Of a stretch of 64,000 bases of DNA, positions 3,927 to 58,675 are shown piece after piece (the stretch's first letter is position 1; each line of letters begins with the position of its first letter). The DNA lies in the NCBI GenBank assembly GCA_963813535.1, contig CAWEZH010000003.1, forward strand, positions 704,001-768,000, given 5' to 3'. Below the pieces are notes generated by a model. The model saw only the letters and a program-made list of their open reading frames with translations. It did no database searches and was not told the DNA's origin. This DNA comes from an uncultured Chloroflexia bacterium. Lineage in GTDB: Bacteria > Chloroflexota > Limnocylindria > Limnocylindrales > CSP1-4. Position numbers and translations under genes: made by a program.

Positions 3927-4886
3927 GTGCCCGATCAGCCTGGTCCACACGAAAGTCGCTTCGACGATCTGGTCGGTTCGCTCGACGCGGTCGTCTGGGA
4001 AGCCGACGGCGACGACTACCGGATGACGTTCGTGTCGCCGCGTTGCAGCGAGATCGTCGGGTACCCGCCCGAGAAATGGCTGACCGAGCCCGAATTCTGG
4101 GAGCGACACCTCCACCCGGACGATCGGGATCGTGCGATCACGGCCACCGACGCCGCGATCCGGGAGCTGCGCAGCCTGCGCATCGAGTACCGCTTCCTCG
4201 TCTCCAGCGGCGAATATCGCTGGTTCTCCGACGTCATCCGTGTCCTGCGCAAGCACGATGGTTCAGGCCACCGGGTGGTCGGCGTGATGATCGATATCAC
4301 CGACCAGAAACGGCTGGAGGAGGCGCTCGCCTACCGCGCGACACACGACACGCTCACCGGGCTGCTCAACCGCGAGCAGCTGAACATCGAGCTGGTCCGC
4401 GTGCACCAGCTGCCCGAACCGTGGGCGCTCCTCTTCCTCGACCTCAACGGCTTCAAGGACATCAACGACGCCCTCGGCCACTCGGTCGGGGACGATGTCC
4501 TGCGGATGGTCGCCGATCGACTGAGCGGCACGGCGCGGGGGACCGATGTCGTGGCCCGCTTCGGTGGCGACGAGTTCTGTGTCCTCGCCTCGGTCACCGA
4601 GAACGAGGCCTCCCTGCACCTCGCCCGCCGGCTTCGGGATGCGATCGCCAAGCCGACCATCGTCGGCGAGCACGCTCTGCGACTCAGCACATCCGTCGGC
4701 ATCGCGTATGTCGAGGCGGAGGGCGCTCCGGAGACGCTGGTCCGCCAGGCGGATGCGGCGATGTACGGAGCCAAGGGCACCGCCGAGGGCATCGCCGTGT
4801 ACGAACCCTGGATGCGCGAGGCCGCCCTCCGGCGGCTCGATGGCAAGGTCTCCGCCGGCGGATCGCCGGGTGCCGAGTCGGGCTGA
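3927..4886 (+). CDS. PAS-domain diguanylate cyclase (PAS_3 + GGDEF)
   Basis: FWERHLHPDDR PAS motif; HDTLTGLLNR, DLNGFKDINDALGHSVGD, intact RFGGDEF. Confidence 0.92.
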   Translation: MPDQPGPHESRFDDLVGSLDAVVWEADGDDYRMTFVSPRCSEIVGYPPEKWLTEPEFWERHLHPDDRDRAITATDAAIRELRSLRIEYRFLVSSGEYRWFSDVIRVLRKHDGSGHRVVGVMIDITDQKRLEEALAYRATHDTLTGLLNREQLNIELVRVHQLPEPWALLFLDLNGFKDINDALGHSVGDDVLRMVADRLSGTARGTDVVARFGGDEFCVLASVTENEASLHLARRLRDAIAKPTIVGEHALRLSTSVGIAYVEAEGAPETLVRQADAAMYGAKGTAEGIAVYEPWMREAALRRLDGKVSAGGSPGAESG

Positions 4887-4911: not shown

Positions 4912-4988
4912 TGGTGCCCCCAAGGGGATTCGAACCCCTGATCTCCACCTTGAAAGGGTGGCGTCCTAGGCCTCTAGACGATGGGGGC
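4912..4988 (-). tRNA. tRNA-Glu (anticodon TTC)
   Basis: Reverse complement GCCCCCATCGTCTAGAGGCCTAGGACGCCACCCTTTCAAGGTGGAGATCAGGGGTTCGAATCCCCTTGGGGGCACCA; cloverleaf, GTTCGAA T-loop, encoded CCA. Confidence 0.96.
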
Positions 4989-7651: not shown

Positions 7652-9358
7652 ATGTCCTCCCGCTCTCCCTGGCTGGCCACGACCGTGGCCGCGCTCCTCG
7701 TGGCAGCCTGTGCCGGTACCACCTCGCCGTCGCCTGCCGGGCGGACCGATCCGACGATCAGCGCGAGTCCGCCAAGCTCGGCATCTCCCGACTGCATCGC
7801 TGCGTCTCCGGACGCGTCGACCGCGGGGTGGTGGCGCGAGCGCGTCTTCTACGAGGTGTTCGTCCGCAGTTTCGCCGACTCGGACGGCGACGGCATCGGC
7901 GACCTGCGCGGTCTCACCCAGCGACTCGACGAGCTGAACGACGGGGATCCGGCAACGACCGACGATCTCGGCGTCACCGGCCTATGGCTGATGCCGATCG
8001 CCGAGTCACCCAGCTATCACGGCTACGACGTGGTCGACTACCGCGCGGTCGAGCAGGACTACGGCTCGACGGCCGACCTGGCTGCGCTGGTCGGCGCCGC
8101 ACACCAACGAGGGATCGCGGTCATCGTCGACCTCGTCATCAACCACACGTCGCGCGAGCATCCCTGGTTCCAGGACGCGCGGACACCCGGCTCGGACCAC
8201 GACGATTGGTACATGTGGGCCGACGAGCACCCGGCGATCGCGCGCTCGGACGGGTCGCGCGTCTGGCATCCCGATGGCGAGCGCTTCTACTACGGCTACT
8301 TCTGGGAGGGCATGCCGGACCTGAACCTCGCGAACCCCGAGGTGACCGCGGAGCTGGACTCGATCGCGGACGCCTGGCTCGACGCCGGCATCGACGGCTT
8401 CCGCATCGACGCCGCCCGGCACCTGTTCGAGGACGGCGCGACGCTCGAGAACGTCGATGCCACGTTCGAGTGGCTCGCGGCGTTCCGCGACCGGATCAAG
8501 CAGCAGCATCCCGATGCGCTCGTCCTCGGCGAGGTCTGGGACGCGTCGTCGATGTCGGCCCGGTACGTGCGCGAGGGCGCGCTCGATGTGACCTTCGATT
8601 TCGGCCTGGCCAGCGCGATCGTCGATTCCGTCCGGTCCGGAGACGGCGGGGCGGTCCAGGCGGCACTCGACGAGGTGGCGCAGCTGTACGAGCCGGGCTG
8701 GCTTGCGACATTCCTGACCAACCACGACCAGGACCGGGTCATGACCGAGCTCGGCGGCGATGTCGAGTCGGCGAAGCTCGCGGCAACGCTGCTGCTGACC
8801 GGTGGCGGGACGCCGTTCCTGTACTACGGCGAGGAGATCGGCCTGACCGGCCAGAAGCCGGATGAGCGCATCCGTACGCCGATGCGCTGGGACGCCAGCG
8901 GACCGGCGGCCGGGTTCACCACCGGCACGCCTTGGGAGCCGCTCGGCGACGATCCGCCGGGGGCCGACGTCCGGACCGAGCGCGCCGACCCGAGCTCGCT
9001 CTACTCGACCTACCGCGAGCTGATCGCGATGCGGGCCGGTGAGCCCGCACTGCGTTCCGGTGCGATCTGGCCGGTAGGCGCGAGCGAAGCGTCGGTCGTG
9101 GCGTTCCTCAGGGCCGATCCCGACCCGGCTCGTGGTGCTGTCCTCGTCATAGCCAACCTCGCGGATTCGCCGGTCCCGTCGTTCGCCCTGACGGCAGAGA
9201 CGGGCCCGCTCTGTGGCTCGCCGAAGCCCGAGGTCCTGCGTGGACCGGAGAGCGTCCAGCCGCCGTCGGTCAGTGCCTCCGGGGGCTTCGACGACTACGT
9301 GCCCCTCGCGGACGGCCTCGCGGCCCGCGAGGTCCTCATCGTTCGGCTCCACCCGTGA
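7652..9358 (+). CDS. Lipoprotein alpha-amylase (GH13)
   Basis: Lipobox LVAAC; YEVFVRSFADSDGDGIGD, SYHGY, DLVINH, GFRIDAA, GEVW, FLTNHD. Confidence 0.92.
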   Translation: MSSRSPWLATTVAALLVAACAGTTSPSPAGRTDPTISASPPSSASPDCIAASPDASTAGWWRERVFYEVFVRSFADSDGDGIGDLRGLTQRLDELNDGDPATTDDLGVTGLWLMPIAESPSYHGYDVVDYRAVEQDYGSTADLAALVGAAHQRGIAVIVDLVINHTSREHPWFQDARTPGSDHDDWYMWADEHPAIARSDGSRVWHPDGERFYYGYFWEGMPDLNLANPEVTAELDSIADAWLDAGIDGFRIDAARHLFEDGATLENVDATFEWLAAFRDRIKQQHPDALVLGEVWDASSMSARYVREGALDVTFDFGLASAIVDSVRSGDGGAVQAALDEVAQLYEPGWLATFLTNHDQDRVMTELGGDVESAKLAATLLLTGGGTPFLYYGEEIGLTGQKPDERIRTPMRWDASGPAAGFTTGTPWEPLGDDPPGADVRTERADPSSLYSTYRELIAMRAGEPALRSGAIWPVGASEASVVAFLRADPDPARGAVLVIANLADSPVPSFALTAETGPLCGSPKPEVLRGPESVQPPSVSASGGFDDYVPLADGLAAREVLIVRLHP

Positions 9359-50613: not shown

Positions 50614-53600
50614 ATGGCGCCCATGCCCGACCGCCCCTCGCTCGGCTCCGTTGACACGGCGCGCGAGCGGTCGATATCGTTCGCGCCTCCCGAACCGCGT
50701 CAAGCATCGAGCCAATTCATCAGCCGTCATCCGGTTCCGGTCGGTCCGGGCCGCGCGGTCGAGGCGACCTCGTCCAGGAGTGCCCACCTGAGCGACGACG
50801 GTAGCGGTTATCCGATCCAGTTCGCGAAGGTGCAGCGTCCCGCACTCCGCGATGAGACGCTCGAGCGCCCCCGGCTCCTCGACTGGCTGCGCGCCAAGGT
50901 CCACGGGAGGGTCGTCCTGATCCTCGCCGACGCGGGTTACGGCAAGACGACCCTCCTCGCCGACTTTTCGCGCCGGACCCGGATGCGCACGCTCTGGTAC
51001 CGGCTCGATCCCGACGATCGCGACTGGGTCACGTTGCTTCACCACCTCGTCGCCGCCGGTCGGGAGCATGACCCGACCTTCGCTCCGGCGACCGCCGCGT
51101 GCCTCGCCGAGGTCGGAACGGCCGGAACGACACGCGAATTCGCGGTCTCGACCTTCGTCGGGGAGCTCCCGACCATCGCCTCGTCGGGAGCCGTGCTGAT
51201 CTTCGACGACTTCCACCTCGTCGACGACGCACCTGACGTGCGCTACATTGCGCGCGAGCTCGTGGCTCGTGCACCCGAGCGCCTCACGATCGCGTTCGCG
51301 AGCAGACGGGCACCGACGGTGCCGCTATCCAGGTTGCGAACCGTGGGTGACGTGGCCGAGCTCGGCACCGACGACCTGCGATTCGACGCCACCGAAACGG
51401 CGCAACTGTTCACCGAGACGTACGGCCGACAGCTGGATCCCGACGTCCTCGAGGACCTCGCCGCGCGGACGGAAGGGTGGATCGCGTCACTCCAACTCGT
51501 GCAGGCGGCACTCCGGGACCGCACGCCGGGCGAGATCCGTCGCTTCGTGCGAACCCTGAACGGAGCGGACCACGACCTCTACGACTACCTGGCAGAGGAG
51601 GTCGTCGGCGACCTCGACGACGAGCTCCAACGGTTCCTGATGGAGACGTCGATCCTCCAGGTCGTGACACCCGAGTTGGCTGAGGTCGTGTCGGGTCGCG
51701 ACGCGGTCGACGTCGCTCGGCTGACGACCGTGGCCGAGCGGCTCACCCTGCTTGGACGGCTGTCTGGCGCTCCGCGGACCCATCAGCGGTATCACCCCCT
51801 GGTCCGCGGCTTCCTCGAGGCAAGACTTCGGTCGACCGACGGTCCCGAGGCGGTCGCAGGGCTTCACCGTCGTGCTGCGGCAGCCGCGGCCGGGACGGAC
51901 TGGAAGGTGGCGGCCCACCACTACCGGGAGGCCGGCGACACCGAGGCGATGCTCGGCGTCGTGGCGGGCGCGATCCCGACGATCATGGGCAATGGACAAT
52001 ACGCCCTCGCCGAGGGCTTCATCGGCCCGATCTCGGCCGACCGCCGCCCGCTGGGCTTCGACCTGATCCTGAGCCGCGTCGACATGCAGCAGGGCGACTA
52101 CGAGGCGGCGATCGCTGCGAGCCAAGCGGTCCTCGACTCGGGCATCACCGACCCAGTCCAACGCGATCACGCACTGCTCAACCTACGTGACACTCGCCAC
52201 CAACTATGGCGACGGTGATCGAGCCATGGCCTTGGCAAAGGAGTTGAGCGCAACTGCTTCTGATCCGAACCTTCGGGCAATTGCAGACGTGTCAGCCCGC
52301 ATCCTGTCGGTCCAAACGGAGAGTGATCTGAGGCGGTTAACAGGCGGTTGAGAACGATGGCCCAGGCGCAACGTGAGACGAGATCGCATCACTTCGGGGT
52401 CACGATGCTCAATCTTGCGCTGAATTCCCTCGTGCAGGACCGCGTCTACGACTCTTTGGCAGAAGCGACTGAAGCCTTGGAGGCATTGGGTTCGACATCG
52501 GGCCTCGTCGAGCAGTCTGCCGCCCGAGTACTCCTCGCATCTATCTGCCTACGACTTGGGCGGCCATGAGGCGGCCGAGAAATACATCGACGAACTCGGA
52601 TATGGCGCGAAGACATACATTCCAAATGAGGCCTTCGCCGATGCGGCTGGCGCATGCGACTCGTACGGATCCCGACTGTTGGCCACGAGATGCCTCGGTC
52701 GAATCGGCGATTCCTCCATTCACACTCGTGCTGACAGGCGAAATCCTGGCAATCACGCGTGCCCGGATGGCCATTCGTAGCCGTGACGCCGCAGCCGCGG
52801 AGCATGAACTCGAGGGGTATCCGGACGGTGTCCCCACCACGGTCGGCGCCATCGCTGAACTTCAACAGGTGCGCGCCCACCTCGGATTGATCGCGCGGCG
52901 ATCCGAGAGCCGGGAGGTTGTTGGAAGAGGCGTCGTCGACGGCCATCGGCCAAGGCGCCACCGCGATGCGCCGCGTGTGTGACCTTCTCATCGCCGCAAG
53001 TCACGGAGCTGAGGAACTATCCAAAGCCTGTGTTGTCATTGGCCAGTCCACGCCGTGGCATCTGAGCTTTGTCGCGGAGGACATCGTCCCGTCCCTCGAG
53101 CAACTGACAGCGGAAGCGCGATTGGTAGTCGAAGGAGCCGCAAACCTACATCGTGAGCGGTGGCGGACCGCGCTGCGGCAAAGCCTTGACTTCGACATAT
53201 CGACCCAATATCGAGGCAGCGCGCTTGTTGGAGCAGGTGGGCGATCGCTCGGATATCTCGCGACTCCGAGGGATCGCGAGGTCGGCGAGAAGGCGGCCCG
53301 ATGCGGCAGGTCTTGGACGACAGTTGTCGCGGCGACTCGCTGACCGCGTGTATGTCGAGGACCAGGGTCGGATTGCGATCGAAATCGGGGGCCGCGCCGT
53401 CCTGGGTTCGACGGTTCGCCGCAAGGTTCTCGCGATGCTGTCGTACCTAATTACCCGCCCTGAACTCTCAGCCACTCGAGATCAAGTACTCGACGCCATG
53501 TGGCCGGAGCTCGACCCGGAGGTCGCGGTCAACTCTCTCAATCAGACGATCTATTTCCTGCGGAGGGTGCTGGAAGAGAATTACTCGGACGACTTGTCGC

Positions 53601-54059
53601 CAGGCTACGTTCACCACGACTCCGACGTGGTGTGGCTCGATGCTGAACTCGTCTCCAGCCGGAGCGTGGAATGCCGGCGAGCTAATTCGGGAGTTTCCGG
53701 CACGGCCGACTCCGGACGACGTGGAGCGGCTCACGCTCCTCTATCGCGGCCGCTTTGCGCTCGACTTCGAGTACGAGGAGTGGGCTGCCGCGTATCGCGA
53801 CAACCTCCACGCGACATACCTAGAGATAGTCGAGAGGTCCGTGCTGGATGACTTCAGATCGGGCCACTACGACCGAGGGATCACGATCGCGCGGCGAGCC
53901 CTCGAGGTCGACCCAAGCGCAGAGCAAATCGAGGCATGCCTGCTTCGTCTGTACCGCGTAACGGGAGCTCATGCGGCGGCCGCGGAGCAGTACGCCCACT
54001 ACGCAGCGGTGATGCGCGAAGAGGTCGGAGTTGAGCCTCCGCCGCTCGAGACCCTATAG
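50614..54059 (+). CDS. Large STAND (MalT-like ATPase)-TPR-wHTH-BTAD transcriptional regulator; several frameshifts in 52185-53680
   Basis: ERPRLL, AGYGKTT Walker A, LIFDDFH Walker B, RTEGW, YLAEEV, RYHPL; C-terminal pieces RRKVLAMLSYL...RDQVLDAMWP..., LYRGRF..DFEYEEWA, EVGVEPP. Confidence 0.8.
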
Positions 54060-54079
54060 GGGATAGGTAAGGTGCCGTA

Positions 54080-54109
54080 TTGACCGGTTTACTTAGCCAT
54101 CCCTACAGT
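54080..54109 (+). promoter_or_regulatory. Sigma70-type promoter for the riboswitch-peptide-HD-GYP operon
   Basis: TTGACC (54080-54085), 18 nt, TACAGT (54104-54109). Confidence 0.6.
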
Positions 54110-54153
54110 CCGGGCACTTGCTAGTACCCCAGTACTAGGAAGAAACGTCAAGA

Positions 54154-54227
54154 CGCTCGGACGCGGCGATGTCTCACCTGAAATGGGCACTTAGGGTGAG
54201 GCGGAGCGACTAGTGCAACCGACCGAC
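54154..54227 (+). ncRNA. c-di-GMP-II riboswitch aptamer
   Basis: CTCGGACGCGGCGATGTCTCACCTGAAATGGGCACTTAGGGTGAGGCGGAGCGACTAGTGCAACCGACCGA: conserved AAATGGGCACTT loop, GCACT/AGTGC pseudoknot, GA/GGAG kink-turn, TAGTGCAACCGACC 3' motif. Confidence 0.85.
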
Positions 54228-54246
54228 TTTCAGTCAGGTCGGTTTT
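54217..54246 (+). terminator. Terminator of the riboswitch expression platform
   Basis: AACCGACC-GACT-TTC-AGTC-A-GGTCGGTT-TT; 5' arm overlaps the aptamer 3' strand; short U tract. Confidence 0.6.
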
Positions 54247-54343
54247 CGTGTTCCCCAGAGCACGAAGGCCGCGAAGGAGGAACGCCCGTGGCTCCCGAGT
54301 CCGCCAAGGCCTGGTAGGCGAGTCCCAGCGATGAGGGACCGAA

Positions 54344-54421
54344 TTGGTGCGCATCCTCGTTGCGCTCTCGAGCGTGGCGATGATCGCCCTGGCTGGAGGG
54401 GCTTCTCTTAGAGGCTTCTAG
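54344..54421 (+). CDS. Small signal-peptide-like precursor (L/M)VRILVALSSVAMIALAGGASLRGF; true start probably ATG 54331 or GTG 54288 if indels are errors
   Basis: Open frame 54335-54421; basic residue, hydrophobic core, AGGA, aromatic C-terminus; AAGGAGG SD at 54274-54280; lies between riboswitch and HD-GYP gene. Confidence 0.7.
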   Translation: MVRILVALSSVAMIALAGGASLRGF

Positions 54422-54489
54422 TACTGATGGCCCATTACCTCACTCGCGGCGCTGGCCGTAGAGTGAGGAAAGAGGCCGATCAGGTAACG

Positions 54490-55896
54490 ATGCCCAAGTC
54501 CCTCAAGCTTTACGTCGCAGTTGTCGTGGTCATCGGCGCCTTGGCGCTGGTGGCCGCGACTTTCGTGTTCCCGCCGAAACCCGGCATCGCGATCGATCTG
54601 CCGGGTTCTACTGGCAGCCCGACGACGCCTGAATACGCGCTGGGCGTGCTGTATTGGATCGCGCTCACGCTAATCGGATCTGCATTTCCAGTTCAGCTTC
54701 CCCGGGGCACCCAACAGGCGGTCGGAATCGCCCCGATCATGGGGTCGCTGTTCCTCGGCGGACCCGCGGTGGCCGGCTGGGTGGCTGCGATCGGGACGAC
54801 AGAGCTTCGCGAACTCAGAGGTCGTATTCCCTGGTACGGGACCCTGGCAAATCATGCGGCGCTGGTGCTGCCGGCAATCGTCGCGGGCAGCGTTCGCGAA
54901 GGACTGCTTGTGCTCGGTGCGCGGCGTGGCGTGGGACTTCGCTGTCCGGAATGGTCGCCGCTTTTGTGTTTATCGCCGGGAACCTCGCGCTGGTCTCATC
55001 TGGCACTTGGCCTTCGGACCGGACAGTCACCGAGGGCCGTACTCCTTGGGGACATCCGCGGAATCACAGGCGGGGTTATTGCCCTTGCGCCTCTCTCCTG
55101 GCTAATGACTGTCGTCTATGCCGTCCAGTGGTGGGCCACCGCCCTGTTCGCCGTTCCCCTGTATTCGACCCGGCTGGCGTACGCGCGCTTCATCGAGATG
55201 CGCGAGATGTTCACCCAGACGATCGGTGCGCTCGCCGAGGCCGTCGACAAGCGCGACCCGTTCACGGCCAAGCACAGCCATCGGGTGAAGGAGATCGCGG
55301 TCGACATCGGCCGCGTGATGCACGTGACCGACGCGGAGCTGGAAGCGCTCGAGTGGGGCGGCCTGCTGCACGACGTCGGCAAGATCGGCGTCCCGGATCG
55401 CGTCCTGCTCAAGCAGGAGCGCCTGAACAAGGACGAGCGGATGATCATGAACGCGCACCCGGTCCTCGGTGCGCAGATCATCGCCCCGGTCACGAAGCTC
55501 GCTCCGGAGCTTCCGATCATCCGCCACCACCACGAGTGGTACAACGGCTCGGGCTATCCGGACCGCCTGATCGGCGACGAGATCCCCAAGCTCGCCCGCA
55601 TCCTCCACGTGGCCGACGCATTCGAGGCGATGACCGCCGCCCGCCCCTACCGGATGACCCCGCTGACGGCGGAGCAGGCGCTCGCCGAGCTGCGCAAGTT
55701 CGCCGGCATCCAGTTCGACCCGGTCGTGGTCGACGCCTTCGTCAACACCCACCACGTCGAGGGCGTCCAGGATCCGGGCCGCACCGTCCAGCCGCGGCCG
55801 ATCCCGCTCCTCGGCCAGGCTGCCGCCACCCGGCTGGCCGACCCACCCGCCACCGGCACGATGCCGTCCACCGCCAAGGCACCCGAGCAAGTCTGA
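54490..55896 (+). CDS. Membrane-sensor HD-GYP cyclic-dinucleotide phosphodiesterase
   Basis: About 6-7 N-terminal TMs (probable compensating frameshifts at 54920-55000); DPFTAKHSHRV, LLHDVGKIG, HHHEWYNGSGYP, ADAFEAMT..RPYR. Confidence 0.92.
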   Translation: MPKSLKLYVAVVVVIGALALVAATFVFPPKPGIAIDLPGSTGSPTTPEYALGVLYWIALTLIGSAFPVQLPRGTQQAVGIAPIMGSLFLGGPAVAGWVAAIGTTELRELRGRIPWYGTLANHAALVLPAIVAGSVREGLLVLGARRGVGLRCPEWSPLLCLSPGTSRWSHLALGLRTGQSPRAVLLGDIRGITGGVIALAPLSWLMTVVYAVQWWATALFAVPLYSTRLAYARFIEMREMFTQTIGALAEAVDKRDPFTAKHSHRVKEIAVDIGRVMHVTDAELEALEWGGLLHDVGKIGVPDRVLLKQERLNKDERMIMNAHPVLGAQIIAPVTKLAPELPIIRHHHEWYNGSGYPDRLIGDEIPKLARILHVADAFEAMTAARPYRMTPLTAEQALAELRKFAGIQFDPVVVDAFVNTHHVEGVQDPGRTVQPRPIPLLGQAAATRLADPPATGTMPSTAKAPEQV

Positions 55897-55929
55897 CGAA
55901 GCGGGAGCCCGCTCCAGCATCATGACGCG

Positions 55930-57957
55930 ATGCTGATCGGCGGGATCCTCCTCGGCCTGCTCCTCGGCCTTCTCGCCGGCGGAAGCCTCCGGAACCTCGC
56001 CGAGATCCGGCTCCGCTGGACCGGGCTGCTCGTCGCCGCCGTGGTCATCCGGTTCGCGACCGAAGCCGCGCTCGACGCCCAGATCGGTGCCGTCGAGGCG
56101 CTCCGGCTGCCGCTGCTCGCCAGCGCGTTCGGGATGCTGCTCGTCACGCTCTGGGTCAACCGGTCGTACCCGGGCCTGAGCCTGGCGTTCCTGGGCGTCC
56201 TGGCGAACGCGCTCGTGATCCTCGCGAACGGCGGGTACATGCCGATCTGGGCGCCGGCGCTTGCCGCCGCCGGTCTGACCGAGGCGGACGTCAACCGCGC
56301 GTTCCACACGATCGTCGACGCCGGAGCGTCCGACTTCCTCGGTCGATTGCTGATCCTCGGGGACGTCATCCCGGTGCCGGTCGACGTCATCCGAAACGTC
56401 TACTCGCTTGGCGACCTGTTCCTGACACTCGGCCTCGCATTCTTCCTGTTCGCCGGGGTCGTGCGCGTCCCGTCGGTCATCGAGGAGGAGGAAGACGCGG
56501 AGCTCCGGCGTCGCCTCGCCGCCGAGCAGGCGGGACAGGGGAGTCGATCGGGCCTCGCCCCGGGTCTGGAACGGACCGCGGCGCTCCAGCGGCCGACCGT
56601 GCTCGGCGCCGGCCGTCCGCGGCTGGCCGGACCGAGCGCCAACCCGGTCGCGGAGACGCCACCGCCGCGCGGCGCGATCGCGATCCCGGGGCTCACCCCG
56701 GATGTCCTCGCTCGCCTCCGACGCCATCCGTATGTCCGCCTCGCGCTCAACGGGTCGTTCAGCGCACTGTGGTCCGGCCAGCTGATCTCGTTGTTCGGCG
56801 ACCGGGTCCACCAGGTGGCGATCGCGGCGATCGTGTTCGTCCTGACCGACTCGCCGATCGCGGTCGCCCTGGTGTTCGTCGCGGCGACGCTCCCCAACCT
56901 GGTGTTCGGGCCGATCGCGGGGACCTTCGTCGATCGCTGGGACCACCGCGAGGTCCTGGTCGTGAGCGACATCCTGCGTGCCGCGGTCGTCTTCGTGATG
57001 CCGATCGTAGCCTCGCTGAACATCTGGCTGGTCTATCCGCTCGCGTTCCTCCTGACCACGATCTCGATCTTCTTCCGGCCCGCGCGGGTCGCGATCCTGC
57101 CCCGGCTCGTGCGGGAGGACGAGCTGCTCACCGCGAACTCGGCGCTCTGGATCGGGGAGACGTTGGTGGACGTCATCGGCTTCCCGCTGGCCGGGCTGTT
57201 CGTGGCGCTCGTCGCCGACGCAGTGTCGATCGCGTTCTGGTTCGACGGCGCAACCTACCTCGCCTCGGCGCTCCTGCTGAGCACGCTCATCCCGCGGCCG
57301 GTCCGTACCGAGGCTCCGACTGGTGCGACCGCCGGCGCGACGACGGGCGGGTTCCGTGCGGAACTCATGGAGGGCTGGCGGTTCCTGCGCAACGACGCCG
57401 TGCTGCTCGCGAATACGCTCCAGGCCGTGGTCGCCCAGCTCACGATCGGCGTCCTCTTCGGTCAGACGATCGTCTACGCGGAACGGGTGTTCGGGCCGCA
57501 GGGCTACAACGGGCTCGCCGTCTACGGCTTCATCGAGGGCAGCCAGGGCGCCGGCAACCTCATCGGCGGGTTCGTGATCGGTCTGGTCGGCGCCGGACTG
57601 GCGAAGGGCAAGTTGATCATCGCCGGCTACACGGTCTTCGGCCTGTTGACCACCGCGATGGCGCTGTCAGGCGACCTCGCCGTCGTCCTGGCCATGGCCT
57701 TCGGCATCGGCATCGCCAACATGGTCTTCATCATCCCGAGCCAGACGCTGTTCCAGGAGCGCACACCGGGCAATCTCATCGGCCGGGTCGTGAGCTTCCG
57801 GTTCTCGCTGGTGTCCGGCGCGATGACGCTGTCGATCGGGCTCGGCGGCGTGCTTTCCGAAGCCATCGGCGTGACAACGACCATCGCGGCGTTCGGCATC
57901 GTCACCGCGGTGGCCGGCATCGCCGGCTGGTTCGTGCCGGCAGTCCGCGAAGCGTGA
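55930..57957 (+). CDS. DUF5317-like membrane domain fused to an MFS_3-type exporter
   Basis: N-terminal GGSLRNL, LWVN, NALVILANGGYMP, H, LGDVIP, YSLGD; C-terminal LWSGQLISLFGD, GTFVDRWDHR, Q.RTP..LIGRV MFS motifs in one continuous frame. Confidence 0.82.
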   Translation: MLIGGILLGLLLGLLAGGSLRNLAEIRLRWTGLLVAAVVIRFATEAALDAQIGAVEALRLPLLASAFGMLLVTLWVNRSYPGLSLAFLGVLANALVILANGGYMPIWAPALAAAGLTEADVNRAFHTIVDAGASDFLGRLLILGDVIPVPVDVIRNVYSLGDLFLTLGLAFFLFAGVVRVPSVIEEEEDAELRRRLAAEQAGQGSRSGLAPGLERTAALQRPTVLGAGRPRLAGPSANPVAETPPPRGAIAIPGLTPDVLARLRRHPYVRLALNGSFSALWSGQLISLFGDRVHQVAIAAIVFVLTDSPIAVALVFVAATLPNLVFGPIAGTFVDRWDHREVLVVSDILRAAVVFVMPIVASLNIWLVYPLAFLLTTISIFFRPARVAILPRLVREDELLTANSALWIGETLVDVIGFPLAGLFVALVADAVSIAFWFDGATYLASALLLSTLIPRPVRTEAPTGATAGATTGGFRAELMEGWRFLRNDAVLLANTLQAVVAQLTIGVLFGQTIVYAERVFGPQGYNGLAVYGFIEGSQGAGNLIGGFVIGLVGAGLAKGKLIIAGYTVFGLLTTAMALSGDLAVVLAMAFGIGIANMVFIIPSQTLFQERTPGNLIGRVVSFRFSLVSGAMTLSIGLGGVLSEAIGVTTTIAAFGIVTAVAGIAGWFVPAVREA

Positions 57958-58039
57958 CCGGCTATCGGGTATCCTGTCGGCCGCCCCACGGCGCGCGATC
58001 CGACGGCGCGCGACCAGCTCCAGGAGCGATGACACTTCC

Positions 58040-58675
58040 GTGACCGAGCCCCGTGACCGCTCGCCCGACGAGCCGCTCGAGCCGACCGATGACGAGGCAC
58101 CCGAGGAGGCCGTCGCGGCCGACGCGCCCGACGATCGGGCGCCGAGCGACGCTAGCGACATCGACGCCGAAACGAGCGACGCCGACGTCGACAAGATCGA
58201 CGACGAGCTGCTCGACGATGCCGAGGCTGACGCCGAGAGCGACGCCATCGAGGTCGACGATTACGAAGCGGCCCTCCGTGAGGTCGCAGGCGAGGCGCCG
58301 CCGGTCGCCGACGCCCCACGGCCGTCGTCCACGAAGCGACGCGGCGAGACGAAGGCACCAGCTCGCGCACCGACACCGTCCGAGGTCGCGGTCCACATCC
58401 GGGAGGACGTCTCGAAGGTGTACGTCCTGGTCGCGGTCGGCGTCTTCGTGCTGATCCTGCTCAACGCCTTGCTCTTCGGAACGGGCGGGTTGCTGCGGCC
58501 GCTACCGACTCCGACACCGAGCGCCAGCGAGAGCCCCAGCGCCAGCCCGGGCGCATCGGCGTCCGGGAGCCCGGGCGCATCCCCGTCGGACAGCGCCGCA
58601 CCGTCGCCGAGCGCCGCCCCGTCGCCCAGCGCAGCACCGTCGCCCAGCGCCGCACCGTCGCCCAGCGCCTCGTAG
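58040..58675 (+). CDS. Acidic single-TM protein with Ser/Pro/Ala C-terminal repeats
   Basis: D/E-rich N-terminus, one TM, (AAPSPS)x4 tail. Confidence 0.75.
   Translation: MTEPRDRSPDEPLEPTDDEAPEEAVAADAPDDRAPSDASDIDAETSDADVDKIDDELLDDAEADAESDAIEVDDYEAALREVAGEAPPVADAPRPSSTKRRGETKAPARAPTPSEVAVHIREDVSKVYVLVAVGVFVLILLNALLFGTGGLLRPLPTPTPSASESPSASPGASASGSPGASPSDSAAPSPSAAPSPSAAPSPSAAPSPSAS
58592..58670 (+). repeat. 18-bp tandem repeat encoding SAAPSP
   Basis: AGCGCCGCACCGTCGCCG-like unit, four copies. Confidence 0.8.

Follow-up and report, generated by a model that had tools for sequence, protein, structure and literature searches.

A conserved mini-protein and DUF5317 accompany a MASE9-HD-GYP protein under a c-di-GMP-II riboswitch in Limnocylindria: a candidate signalling module

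The window analysed in this study is a stretch of 64,000 nucleotides from an uncultured Chloroflexia bacterium (Limnocylindria, Limnocylindrales, CSP1-4; assembly GCA_963813535.1, contig CAWEZH010000003.1, positions 704,001 to 768,000). Its plus strand carries at 54080-57957 a locus in which a riboswitch for cyclic diguanylate (c-di-GMP) of the c-di-GMP-II class is followed by two small upstream open reading frames (uORF1 and uORF2), by the gene of a membrane protein with a probable MASE9 sensor and an HD-GYP domain, and by that of a DUF5317 domain fused to a transporter of the major facilitator superfamily (MFS). As revealed by our comparative analysis, the mini-protein encoded by uORF2 and DUF5317 are conserved neighbours of MASE9 that appear to be new, and their association points to an undescribed signalling module; that the peptide, the sensor and DUF5317 are functionally linked finds good support in the arrangement of their genes. 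We tentatively favour, at a little below an even chance, a reading in which c-di-GMP would induce a phosphodiesterase in a feedback loop, and the MASE9 sensor of this enzyme would be served by an input module of mini-protein and DUF5317, the former being either bound or processed.

The mini-protein gene, uORF2, occupies positions 54344-54421 on the plus strand and encodes 25 amino acids (MVRILVALSSVAMIALAGGASLRGF, followed by the stop codon) from a TTG start. An earlier note on this DNA, made by a model from the letters alone, had described here a hydrophobic micro-ORF with its Shine-Dalgarno (SD) sequence; the micro-ORF proved to be real, but the strong SD sequence GAAGGAGG serves uORF1, and uORF2 is preceded by a weak one (GAGGGA at 54333-54338). 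In relatives uORF2 consists of 29 codons from an ATG, whereas an extra A after 54341 in the window shifts the ancestral ATG (54331) into another frame and leaves TTG 54344 or GTG 54347 as the only possible starts. An ORF ending in AGGAS-x-F was found in 19 of 20 upstream regions of the same genus, the place being masked in the twentieth, and 14 of the 20 loci hold the intact 29-codon ORF from ATG with the consensus MKA(K/R)xxRIxVTLSSVAMIALAGGASLRGF.

The pattern of substitutions in 20 intact sequences, of which 18 end with TAG and two with TGA, is that of a protein-coding gene. In the last 13 codons all 13 third positions vary, as against five first and five second positions, and the pairwise codon differences comprise 1270 synonymous and 307 non-synonymous ones; over all 29 codons the corresponding figures are 2028 and 1752. 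A profile of the 14 intact sequences, run over 401 Chloroflexota genomes, matched 17 of them: the window's own, two of the same genus, nine of six other genera and five of a second family (11 of 23 sampled genomes of the family and five of 16 of the second family). Three of the second-family matches are true small ORFs ending in LALAGGAS(L/F)R(I/L/G)W; the other two were rejected as small ORFs, being the N-terminus of a 489-amino-acid kinase. The profile is narrow: it found no match in the other 361 Chloroflexota genomes and also missed the divergent forms found later. Because uORF2 recurs in the same genus, in other genera and in the second family, and changes mostly at third positions, the comparison argues firmly that it is a real gene, selected at the protein level, and no chance ORF.

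The shape that the earlier note had predicted for such ORFs (a hydrophobic stretch, A/S-G-G/A, a few residues and an aromatic one) was closely matched by the small ORFs beside DUF5317 in 59 of the 80 loci described below. At least seven genera in two families retain the tail AGGAS(L/F)(R/K)G(F/W), which differs only between distant lineages. Searches of Pfam and NCBIfam with 19 distinct mini-proteins returned nothing at E <=0.01 (three chance-level matches, E 0.04-0.22). Three of eight exact mini-protein sequences were present in a collection of 15 billion proteins, each as a 29-amino-acid 'hypothetical protein', and the other five were absent from it.

Upstream of the mini-protein gene, at 54288-54317 on the plus strand, the strong SD sequence GAAGGAGG (54273-54280) introduces uORF1, which the earlier note had missed and which encodes MAPESAKAW in nine codons from a GTG start. 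It is in frame and ends in K-(G/A)-(W/Y) in 14 of 18 leaders of the same genus, two of these with whole-codon insertions and two with a 24-nt internal duplication repeating ESAKGW. The four exceptions keep the bases of uORF1 and have lost the frame, and three of those four assemblies hold further insertions or deletions (indels). In all ten leaders from other genera and the second family uORF1 takes the form M-x-(P/R/I)-(E/Q/D)-x-x-(x)-K-(G/S)-(W/F). It comprises 9-10 codons and stops 13-40 nt ahead of uORF2, and both uORFs close with a basic, a small and an aromatic residue before the stop codon ([KR]-[GS]-[FW]-stop). Compared with the Anaerolineales mini-proteins discussed below, uORF1 looks like a mini-protein tail devoid of its anchor (APESAKGW against tails in APETTGW).

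The pairing of the mini-protein with DUF5317 extends far beyond Limnocylindria. Scanning 185,579 species genomes with a DUF5317 pattern yielded 460 confirmed relatives, and the locus counts given here concern the best-scoring 80 of these 460, which are no random sample and include many metagenome-assembled genomes (MAGs) with indels. These loci span classes of Chloroflexota, Bacillota, Bipolaricaulota, Thermotogota, Atribacterota, Gaiellales/Thermoleophilia, Bacteroidota/Ignavibacteriales, Sumerlaeota, Fraserbacteria and Neomarinimicrobiota, and in them DUF5317 is a separate gene of about 170-210 amino acids without an MFS part. The proposal of the earlier note depended on a conserved micro-ORF at other DUF5317/HD-GYP loci, and it survived this comparison: a small ORF lies beside DUF5317 in 59 of the 80 loci, in many phyla, and an HD-GYP gene adjoins DUF5317 in 43 of the 80. 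HD-GYP neighbours were called with a hidden Markov model (HMM) of the domain built from the orthologue alignment; 39 lie directly upstream on the same strand and four directly downstream, one further gene is on the opposite strand, 28 loci have none though the flank is present, and eight are too short. The membrane part of 29 of the 43 adjacent HD-GYP proteins also matches an HMM of the N-terminal membrane domain (alignment A3). A hybrid histidine kinase stands in this place as the MASE9-like neighbour in four Chloroflexia loci, and in 17 of the 80, mostly those without HD-GYP, the upstream gene encodes a regulator of about 1070 amino acids composed of a STAND nucleoside triphosphatase (NTPase), tetratricopeptide repeats (TPR) and a BTAD domain, homologous to a regulator encoded in the window.

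The small ORF was not found in 21 of the 80 loci, 12 of which are cut where it would lie. A rule-based detector, which required 20-95 amino acids in which a basic N flank precedes a hydrophobic 14-mer and the helix closes with small residues before a short tail, gave 57 matches in 256 kb of same-strand neighbourhood, compared with four in 1270 kb elsewhere on both strands. Upstream of HD-GYP the small ORF encodes MKINKAKLISLLISVMALLLAGGAKFRWR in Atribacterota and MKWRILYYITVIASFLIASGATHKWR in Bacillota; the Bipolaricaulota and Thermotogae form ends in LLAVLSGAHQKWGG and that of Gaiellales in AAYAVASGAAVKWGA. Its position varies, as it follows DUF5317 in Peptococcaceae and stands between DUF5317 and HD-GYP in Ignavibacteriales. 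At STAND loci without HD-GYP small ORFs occupy the gap before DUF5317, with tails in MAVGAPETTGW, VASGAPAGPGGSNGG and VAAGAPICFRC, and in two Anaerolineae MAGs the stretch from the STAND regulator to DUF5317 contains near-identical mini-protein genes of 46-47 codons in tandem: five identical copies and a degenerate sixth in one locus (L075, 4924-5922) and three copies in the other (L073, 5446-5922). Stand-alone DUF5317 genes of Limnocylindria-like genomes are followed by an ORF ending in LEAG(R/K)RW. The genome of the window has itself a second, stand-alone DUF5317 gene (G000:C2, L004 7619-8194) with a downstream 33-codon mini-protein ORF (8366-8467, ending in LVLEAARRWN), and this pair has neither an HD-GYP gene nor a riboswitch nearby.

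The alignment of 46 mini-proteins (alignment A5) has only two near-invariant columns, Gly26 and Ala27, both at the end of the helix. Its members share a basic N flank, one helix of at least 16 residues, the Gly-Ala junction and a tail of 3-10 residues, or about 25 in the Anaerolineae type. All 46 mini-proteins carry more positive charge on the N flank than on the tail (median +3.5 vs 0), from which the N-terminus is predicted to lie inside and the tail outside.

The partner of the mini-protein in the window, the DUF5317::MFS gene (55930-57957, plus strand), encodes 675 amino acids. In agreement with the fusion proposed by the earlier note, DUF5317 (PF17248, E 1.2e-23, 84.2 bits vs a cut-off of 25) covers residues 25-173 and a DHA3/MFS_3-type transporter (MFS_1, E 1.5e-22; MFS_3, E 6.4e-22) residues 275-669, the database names of the MFS homologues being DHA3 macrolide-efflux-like. 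Full-length relatives of the fusion were found throughout the genus (36 genomes and the window's own), and only generic MFS-level matches in the small-genome sister family. A search with the fusion protein retrieved 713 proteins at E<=1e-3, the best 120 of which have nearly all the DUF5317::MFS architecture. Among the loci examined, the MFS fusion is confined to Limnocylindria.

The AlphaFold2 model of DUF5317, computed from a 45-row alignment, is confident (pLDDT 93.7, pTM 0.87) and consists of five long helices with a small sheet between residues 104 and 159. Invariant or near-invariant are G17/G18, N77, N93, N100-G-G-x-M-P105, D146, S160-x-G-D163 and G169. The loops carry charges of +2, -1, +1 and -2 in order, and MFS proteins usually start on the cytoplasmic side; because of both, region 100-159 and most of the invariant polar residues would lie on the outer face. 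The earlier note had cast DUF5317 as a maturase, a claim that found no backing: its profile had 0 matches among PDB sequences at E<=10, Foldseek returned none at E<=0.001 for the model (seven weak matches, the best a rhodopsin at E 4.3), and a protein atlas search in which its own family was skipped gave no usable look-alike.

Two specific relationships of DUF5317 were considered and rejected. Signal peptidase II (LspA, Pfam Peptidase_A8) offers a superficial likeness, as L-A-G-G of the mini-protein recalls a lipobox without its Cys and DUF5317 has Asp motifs near the membrane boundary; an LspA-like aspartyl peptidase was rejected on the PDB profile result and on the absence of LspA from the seven Foldseek matches. 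The genome of the window has a separate LspA homologue elsewhere (G000:C2:519915-520328; L072 1270-1965), which contains FNLANS at a position where the usual signal peptidase II presumably has an Asp. A relationship of DUF5317 with the membrane domain of the HD-GYP protein failed as well (hhalign probability 0.4), which rules out the mini-protein as the missing helix of a DUF5317-like sensor.

The gene between the mini-protein and DUF5317::MFS lies at 54490-55896 on the plus strand, within an ORF at 54427-55896. Its conserved start is ATG 54490, and the product is a membrane protein of 468 amino acids. The multi-pass sensor fused to an intact HD-GYP domain that the earlier note had seen was borne out (HD_5, E 2.5e-39): the HD and HHExxNGSGYP motifs are retained, and H294, D295, H347, H348, E349, G353, G355, Y356 and P357 are invariant in 16 orthologues including the window, so that a membrane c-di-GMP phosphodiesterase is predicted. 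The probable identity of the sensor had escaped that note. MASE9 (PF20972) matches 12 of the 16 Limnocylindria orthologues (best E 4.3e-10) and the homologues from Bacillota and Atribacterota (2e-9 and 9.5e-13), and by these matches the sensor domain is probably MASE9; the window's own copy gives no match. About 30 codons of its membrane domain (near 54925-55015) are out of frame relative to all 15 orthologues, the orthologous residues being found in another frame, which reflects either a compensated pair of assembly indels or real decay. Assembly indels are the simplest reading of the frame disruptions in the window. Similar indels occur in cassette genes of several related long-contig MAGs, and the genome of the window consists of three contigs.

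MASE9 was defined by Galperin and Chou as a domain of eight membrane segments that is promiscuous among HD-GYP and GGDEF-EAL proteins, and ligand binding within the membrane was proposed for it in the parts of the preprint that we cite (10.1101/2021.11.05.467447). The MASE9-HD-GYP proteins named there, T. maritima TM1467 and S. venezuelae HdgA among them, resemble the protein described here in having an N-terminal multi-pass MASE9 and a C-terminal HD-GYP domain with all catalytic motifs.

The regulatory element of the locus is a full-length c-di-GMP-II aptamer (RF01786) at 54150-54233 on the plus strand, which scores 64.4 bits (E 4.5e-12) over model positions 1-84 of 84, above the gathering score of 53.5. 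It overlaps an intrinsic terminator at 54221-54252 (hairpin 54221-54244 followed by a T-run), taken as its expression platform, the 5' arm of which shares 13 nt with the 3' end of the aptamer, as the earlier note had recognised. This is the sole RF01786 match in the 3.28-Mb genome, which holds 20 GGDEF, four EAL and three HD_5 matches among its c-di-GMP turnover domains. The aptamer exceeds the gathering score in 18 of 20 upstream regions of the same genus, the other two being cut by a contig end, and in 10 of 13 scanned loci from other genera and the second family; the orthologous leaders score 55-72 bits, and the terminator stem and T-run are kept in 18 of 18 aligned leaders. At gathering threshold, no c-di-GMP riboswitch of either class was found in 25 loci outside Limnocylindria, and for this reason the riboswitch is best regarded as a lineage-specific add-on to the Limnocylindria form of the module, a point absent from the earlier note. 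Like known c-di-GMP-II riboswitches, that of the window has a full-length aptamer and a 3'-overlapping terminator and stands in the leader of a c-di-GMP turnover gene; unlike them, it has a conserved 5' hairpin ahead of it, and two conserved uORFs separate it from the enzyme gene.

The c-di-GMP-bound aptamer would retain the shared 13 nt and hold the 5' arm of the terminator within itself, which would prevent termination and allow read-through into the operon, hence the ON logic. Four cistrons (uORF1, the mini-protein, MASE9-HD-GYP and DUF5317::MFS) would in this way be turned on by c-di-GMP, and the induced HD-GYP enzyme would lower its level and close a negative loop. Given the overlap of aptamer and terminator, such feedback is a reasonable interpretation.

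Contigs assembled from sequencing libraries were also compared on the aptamer (window 54161-54241) and on the conserved HD region, using contigs and not reads, with shares of <=0.17. In two soil metatranscriptome runs the contigs of relatives had a summed depth of 320 and 34 on the aptamer, far above the 3.7 and 28 on the HD region, whereas two DNA runs showed the reverse (9 vs 78 and 4.7 vs 130). One RNA-library contig of a relative spans the leader from the aptamer to uORF2. The pile-up of RNA-library contigs on the aptamer gives a weak hint, short of evidence, of transcription and of early-terminated leaders, and stretches lacking contig cover carry no information.

Within our preferred account of a c-di-GMP-induced feedback enzyme with a mini-protein/DUF5317 input, MASE9 would gate the phosphodiesterase by a membrane input represented by its constant neighbours. 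The mini-protein would sit with its N-terminus in, crossing the membrane by one helix and exposing the Gly-Ala junction and a tail of 3-25 residues outside, and the invariant Asn/Asp/Ser cluster of the five-helix DUF5317 would likewise face out. DUF5317 would bind or process the mini-protein at the Gly-Ala junction, and the product or complex would set the neighbouring signalling protein, which is the HD-GYP enzyme here and a MASE9 histidine kinase or a STAND-TPR-BTAD regulator elsewhere. A number of observations weigh against this account. Contact, cleavage and an effect on the enzyme were shown by none of the analyses, and DUF5317 bears no detectable likeness to any protease or solved fold in the sequence and model searches. 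A tail that hardly varies across two families would be no less expected of a structural contact than of a signal; the mini-protein core of at least 16 residues resembles a stable membrane anchor more than a cleaved signal peptide, and K/R-W behind a helix commonly serves as an interfacial anchor. Nine of the 80 loci held no small ORF in spite of enough sequence, the rules for small ORFs were written after examples had been seen, and for the sequences it was trained on the HMM scan is circular. That the riboswitch would switch ON is read from the sequence overlap of aptamer and terminator, and the window copy, with its frame-disrupted uORF2 start and MASE9 domain, may be damaged or mis-assembled. 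When MASE9 (residues 1-245), the DUF5317 domain and the 32-amino-acid mini-protein of one related locus (L066) were folded together, the scores were 0.47, 0.44 and 0.53; partner swaps scored 0.00 and 0.00, and a trio with MASE9 replaced reached 0.69, so that this prediction speaks neither in favour of binding nor against it.

Whether the mini-protein is cut divides the preferred account from its nearest competitor, a plausible though less probable reading in which it is an uncleaved single-pass subunit that tunes or stabilises DUF5317, MASE9 or both, with no peptide released and with the riboswitch ON logic and feedback unchanged. Such a subunit would agree with the size of 26-50 amino acids and the single long helix flanked by K/R and W in many phyla (MKW...KW), with the nearly invariant tail within Limnocylindria, with a gene position that shifts inside the cluster as for a complex member, and with the failure to find a protease fold in DUF5317 by PDB profile and Foldseek. 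MgrB with PhoQ and KdpF with Kdp are examples of small single-pass membrane partners. The likeness to the MgrB-PhoQ type lies in a length below 50 amino acids, a single helix, and a gene beside and co-transcribed with that of a membrane sensor; unlike that type, the mini-protein is retained in many phyla alongside a third membrane protein, occurs also without an adjacent sensor gene and is sometimes tandem. Five identical tandem copies and a degenerate one would be unusual for a stoichiometric subunit, the tails differ strongly between lineages (Gly/Pro-rich and Cys-pair types) while the Gly-Ala junction is invariant, and uORF1 has the appearance of a free, unanchored tail. Cutting would be favoured by the signal-peptide-like build, by the invariant junction with lineage-specific tails, by the tandem arrays and Cys-pair tails, and by the tail-like uORF1.

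In a further version of the input module the peptide would act between cells, as the earlier note had proposed; such a pheromone precursor would be cut by DUF5317, exported by the fused MFS and sensed outside by the membrane HD-GYP protein, giving quorum sensing with c-di-GMP hydrolysis as its output. We consider this unlikely. Since a cell-to-cell pheromone is a special case of the input module, the probabilities that we attach to the module, to the uncleaved subunit and to the pheromone overlap. A precursor role would suit the layout of the mini-protein, which resembles a signal peptide and has small junction residues followed by a short tail, and it would also suit the tandem precursor-like arrays, the TPR-containing regulators adjacent in 17 loci, which recall peptide-binding TPR regulators, and the MFS fusion and leaderless uORF1 in one lineage. 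Among the features by which peptide quorum sensing is recognised, a small ORF composed, like a precursor, of a leader and a short C-terminal portion was indeed found (alignment A5), whereas no processing enzyme of a recognisable protease class was found by the sequence, fold and atlas searches on DUF5317, a negative that leaves room for a new class. Nor was pherotype-like divergence seen between close lineages, the tail being nearly invariant over at least seven genera and two families, unlike strain-specific pheromones. Furthermore, an MFS fusion found only in Limnocylindria among the examined loci places MFS export outside the general module, and the tail would already be outside after membrane insertion, so that no exporter is needed. 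The outer loops of MASE9 are only short according to the parts of the preprint cited (10.1101/2021.11.05.467447).

With respect to known peptide systems, the closest comparison is with the RRNPP type (SHP/Rgg, Phr/Rap), in which signal-peptide-like pheromone precursors of Gram-positives are coupled to TPR regulators. Shared with it are ORFs of 20-50 codons whose products begin with basic residues, continue with a hydrophobic stretch and close with a short C-terminal part, a TPR regulator adjacent in the 17 STAND loci, and tandem copies. In contrast to it, the peptide gene is associated either with a regulator built of a STAND NTPase and a BTAD output or with a membrane sensor, MASE9; DUF5317 stands as its constant companion in place of a known protease or ABC exporter, and the peptide is highly conserved between genera. 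An equally doubtful extension would make DUF5317 a new membrane-embedded processing family that cuts at Gly-Ala on the outside and releases tails (ASLRGF, KW-, APETTGW- and Cys-pair-type) as ligands of MASE9 or STAND-TPR-BTAD proteins, with a peptide signal coupled to c-di-GMP hydrolysis in Limnocylindria and uORF1 exported by the MFS as a second signal.

A transport operon, in which DUF5317::MFS would export a small molecule at high c-di-GMP with the mini-protein as an accessory and HD-GYP merely as a co-expressed feedback enzyme, is improbable. The MFS domain is of the DHA3/MFS_3 efflux type, and the conserved intramembrane polar residues of DUF5317 would be consistent with transport; the MFS-free DUF5317 of the 80 other-lineage loci nevertheless adjoins HD-GYP, MASE9 kinases or STAND regulators, which makes the tie to signalling proteins the general case and the transporter the exception. 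Least probable is that both uORFs are functionless cis-acting leader peptides, whose translation or stalling at the shared K/R-G-W/F-stop tunes the downstream genes: the common [KR]-[GS]-[FW]-stop ending and the spacing of 13-40 nt between the stop of uORF1, with its very strong SD sequence, and the weak-SD uORF2 do recall translational coupling, yet in several lineages the small ORF comes after DUF5317, where a leader role is impossible, the basic N-terminus and hydrophobic helix are kept in all phyla, and tandem arrays of the mini-protein occur. For uORF1 alone a leader-peptide role is possible.

Returning to the input module, its significance lies in the fact that MASE9 and DUF5317, families without known ligand or function, gain a concrete partner in a cross-phylum mini-protein. 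This association suggests an input route for a broad group of membrane HD-GYP enzymes, and likewise for certain histidine kinases and STAND regulators. The locus itself would be a clear example, from an uncultured soil lineage, of c-di-GMP feedback driven by a riboswitch, and indicates that very short ORFs (9-30 codons) which annotation passes over can be central to signalling systems. The literature searched holds no mention of DUF5317/PF17248 and one relevant preprint on MASE9 (10.1101/2021.11.05.467447), the main text of which has 0 occurrences each of DUF5317 and of riboswitch, its supplementary figures lying outside this count; no small partner protein is described in the parts cited. Titles and abstract openings on the c-di-GMP-II riboswitch with HD-GYP, or on HD-GYP with small membrane proteins, likewise contained no such module.

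Upstream of the cassette, at 50614-54059 on the plus strand, lies the gene of the STAND NTPase-TPR regulator with a winged helix-turn-helix/BTAD part (AAA_16 on 50614-52218, BTAD on 53640-54059), which is broken across several reading frames in the present assembly; positions 50809-51846 are matched by the 1070-amino-acid regulator of the five-copy Anaerolineae locus (tblastn, E 4e-41). In related Limnocylindria loci, too, the BTAD end precedes the riboswitch, and the regulator is hence syntenic with the cassette. Taken as a whole, the anatomy drawn by the earlier note stands and its interpretation finds support in part; this regulator completes the list of what it had overlooked, namely uORF1, the probable MASE9 identity and the lineage-specificity of the riboswitch.

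The sigma-70-like promoter that the earlier note had placed ahead of the aptamer was recovered at 54080-54109 on the plus strand (TTGACC-18-TACAGT). It is the only such site in 53900-58200, compared with a mean of 0.4 in shuffled sequence, and the pair TTGACC...TATAGT/TAGAGT is kept in 10 of 10 leaders of other genera. Between its -10 box and the aptamer, minimum free energy and centroid folds contain a 19-nt 5' hairpin, CUAGUAC-N4-GUACUAG (54121-54139, plus strand), and the palindrome CUAGUAC/GUACUAG recurs at this place in every Limnocylindria leader seen. The word TAGTAC reappears exactly at the uORF2 stop (54419-54424) in most Limnocylindria leaders, and a long-range alternative pairing of the 5' hairpin with this word is conceivable. 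Conserved columns of the leader alignment further include a TAGAGT block at 54459-54464 (plus strand), about 25 nt before the SD sequence of the HD-GYP gene, which reads TAGACT in the second family. Because relatives have the same word as -10 box in their main promoter, this block is a candidate -10 box of an internal promoter that may act independently of the riboswitch.

Downstream of the fusion gene, at 58040-58675 on the plus strand, a syntenic gene encodes an acidic Pro/Ser-rich protein with one hydrophobic stretch and no Pfam match; an ORF beginning with MTE(P/R/H) follows the fusion gene in loci L062-L070 as well. The order of riboswitch, small ORF, HD-GYP, DUF5317::MFS and acidic protein is identical in ten larger regions taken from the genera matched by the uORF2 profile. 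Promoter, aptamer and terminator recur with an unchanged gene order in 18 of 20 loci of the same genus and in 10 of 13 from other genera and the second family. Elsewhere in the window are a GGDEF-domain gene (4338-4781, plus strand) and a tRNA gene (4915-4988, minus strand). Finally, in two Atribacterota MAGs a raiA RNA (RF03072, about 173 bits; L140 2781-2997 and L146 2829-3045) lies about 1.5 kb upstream of the cluster and is probably unrelated to it.

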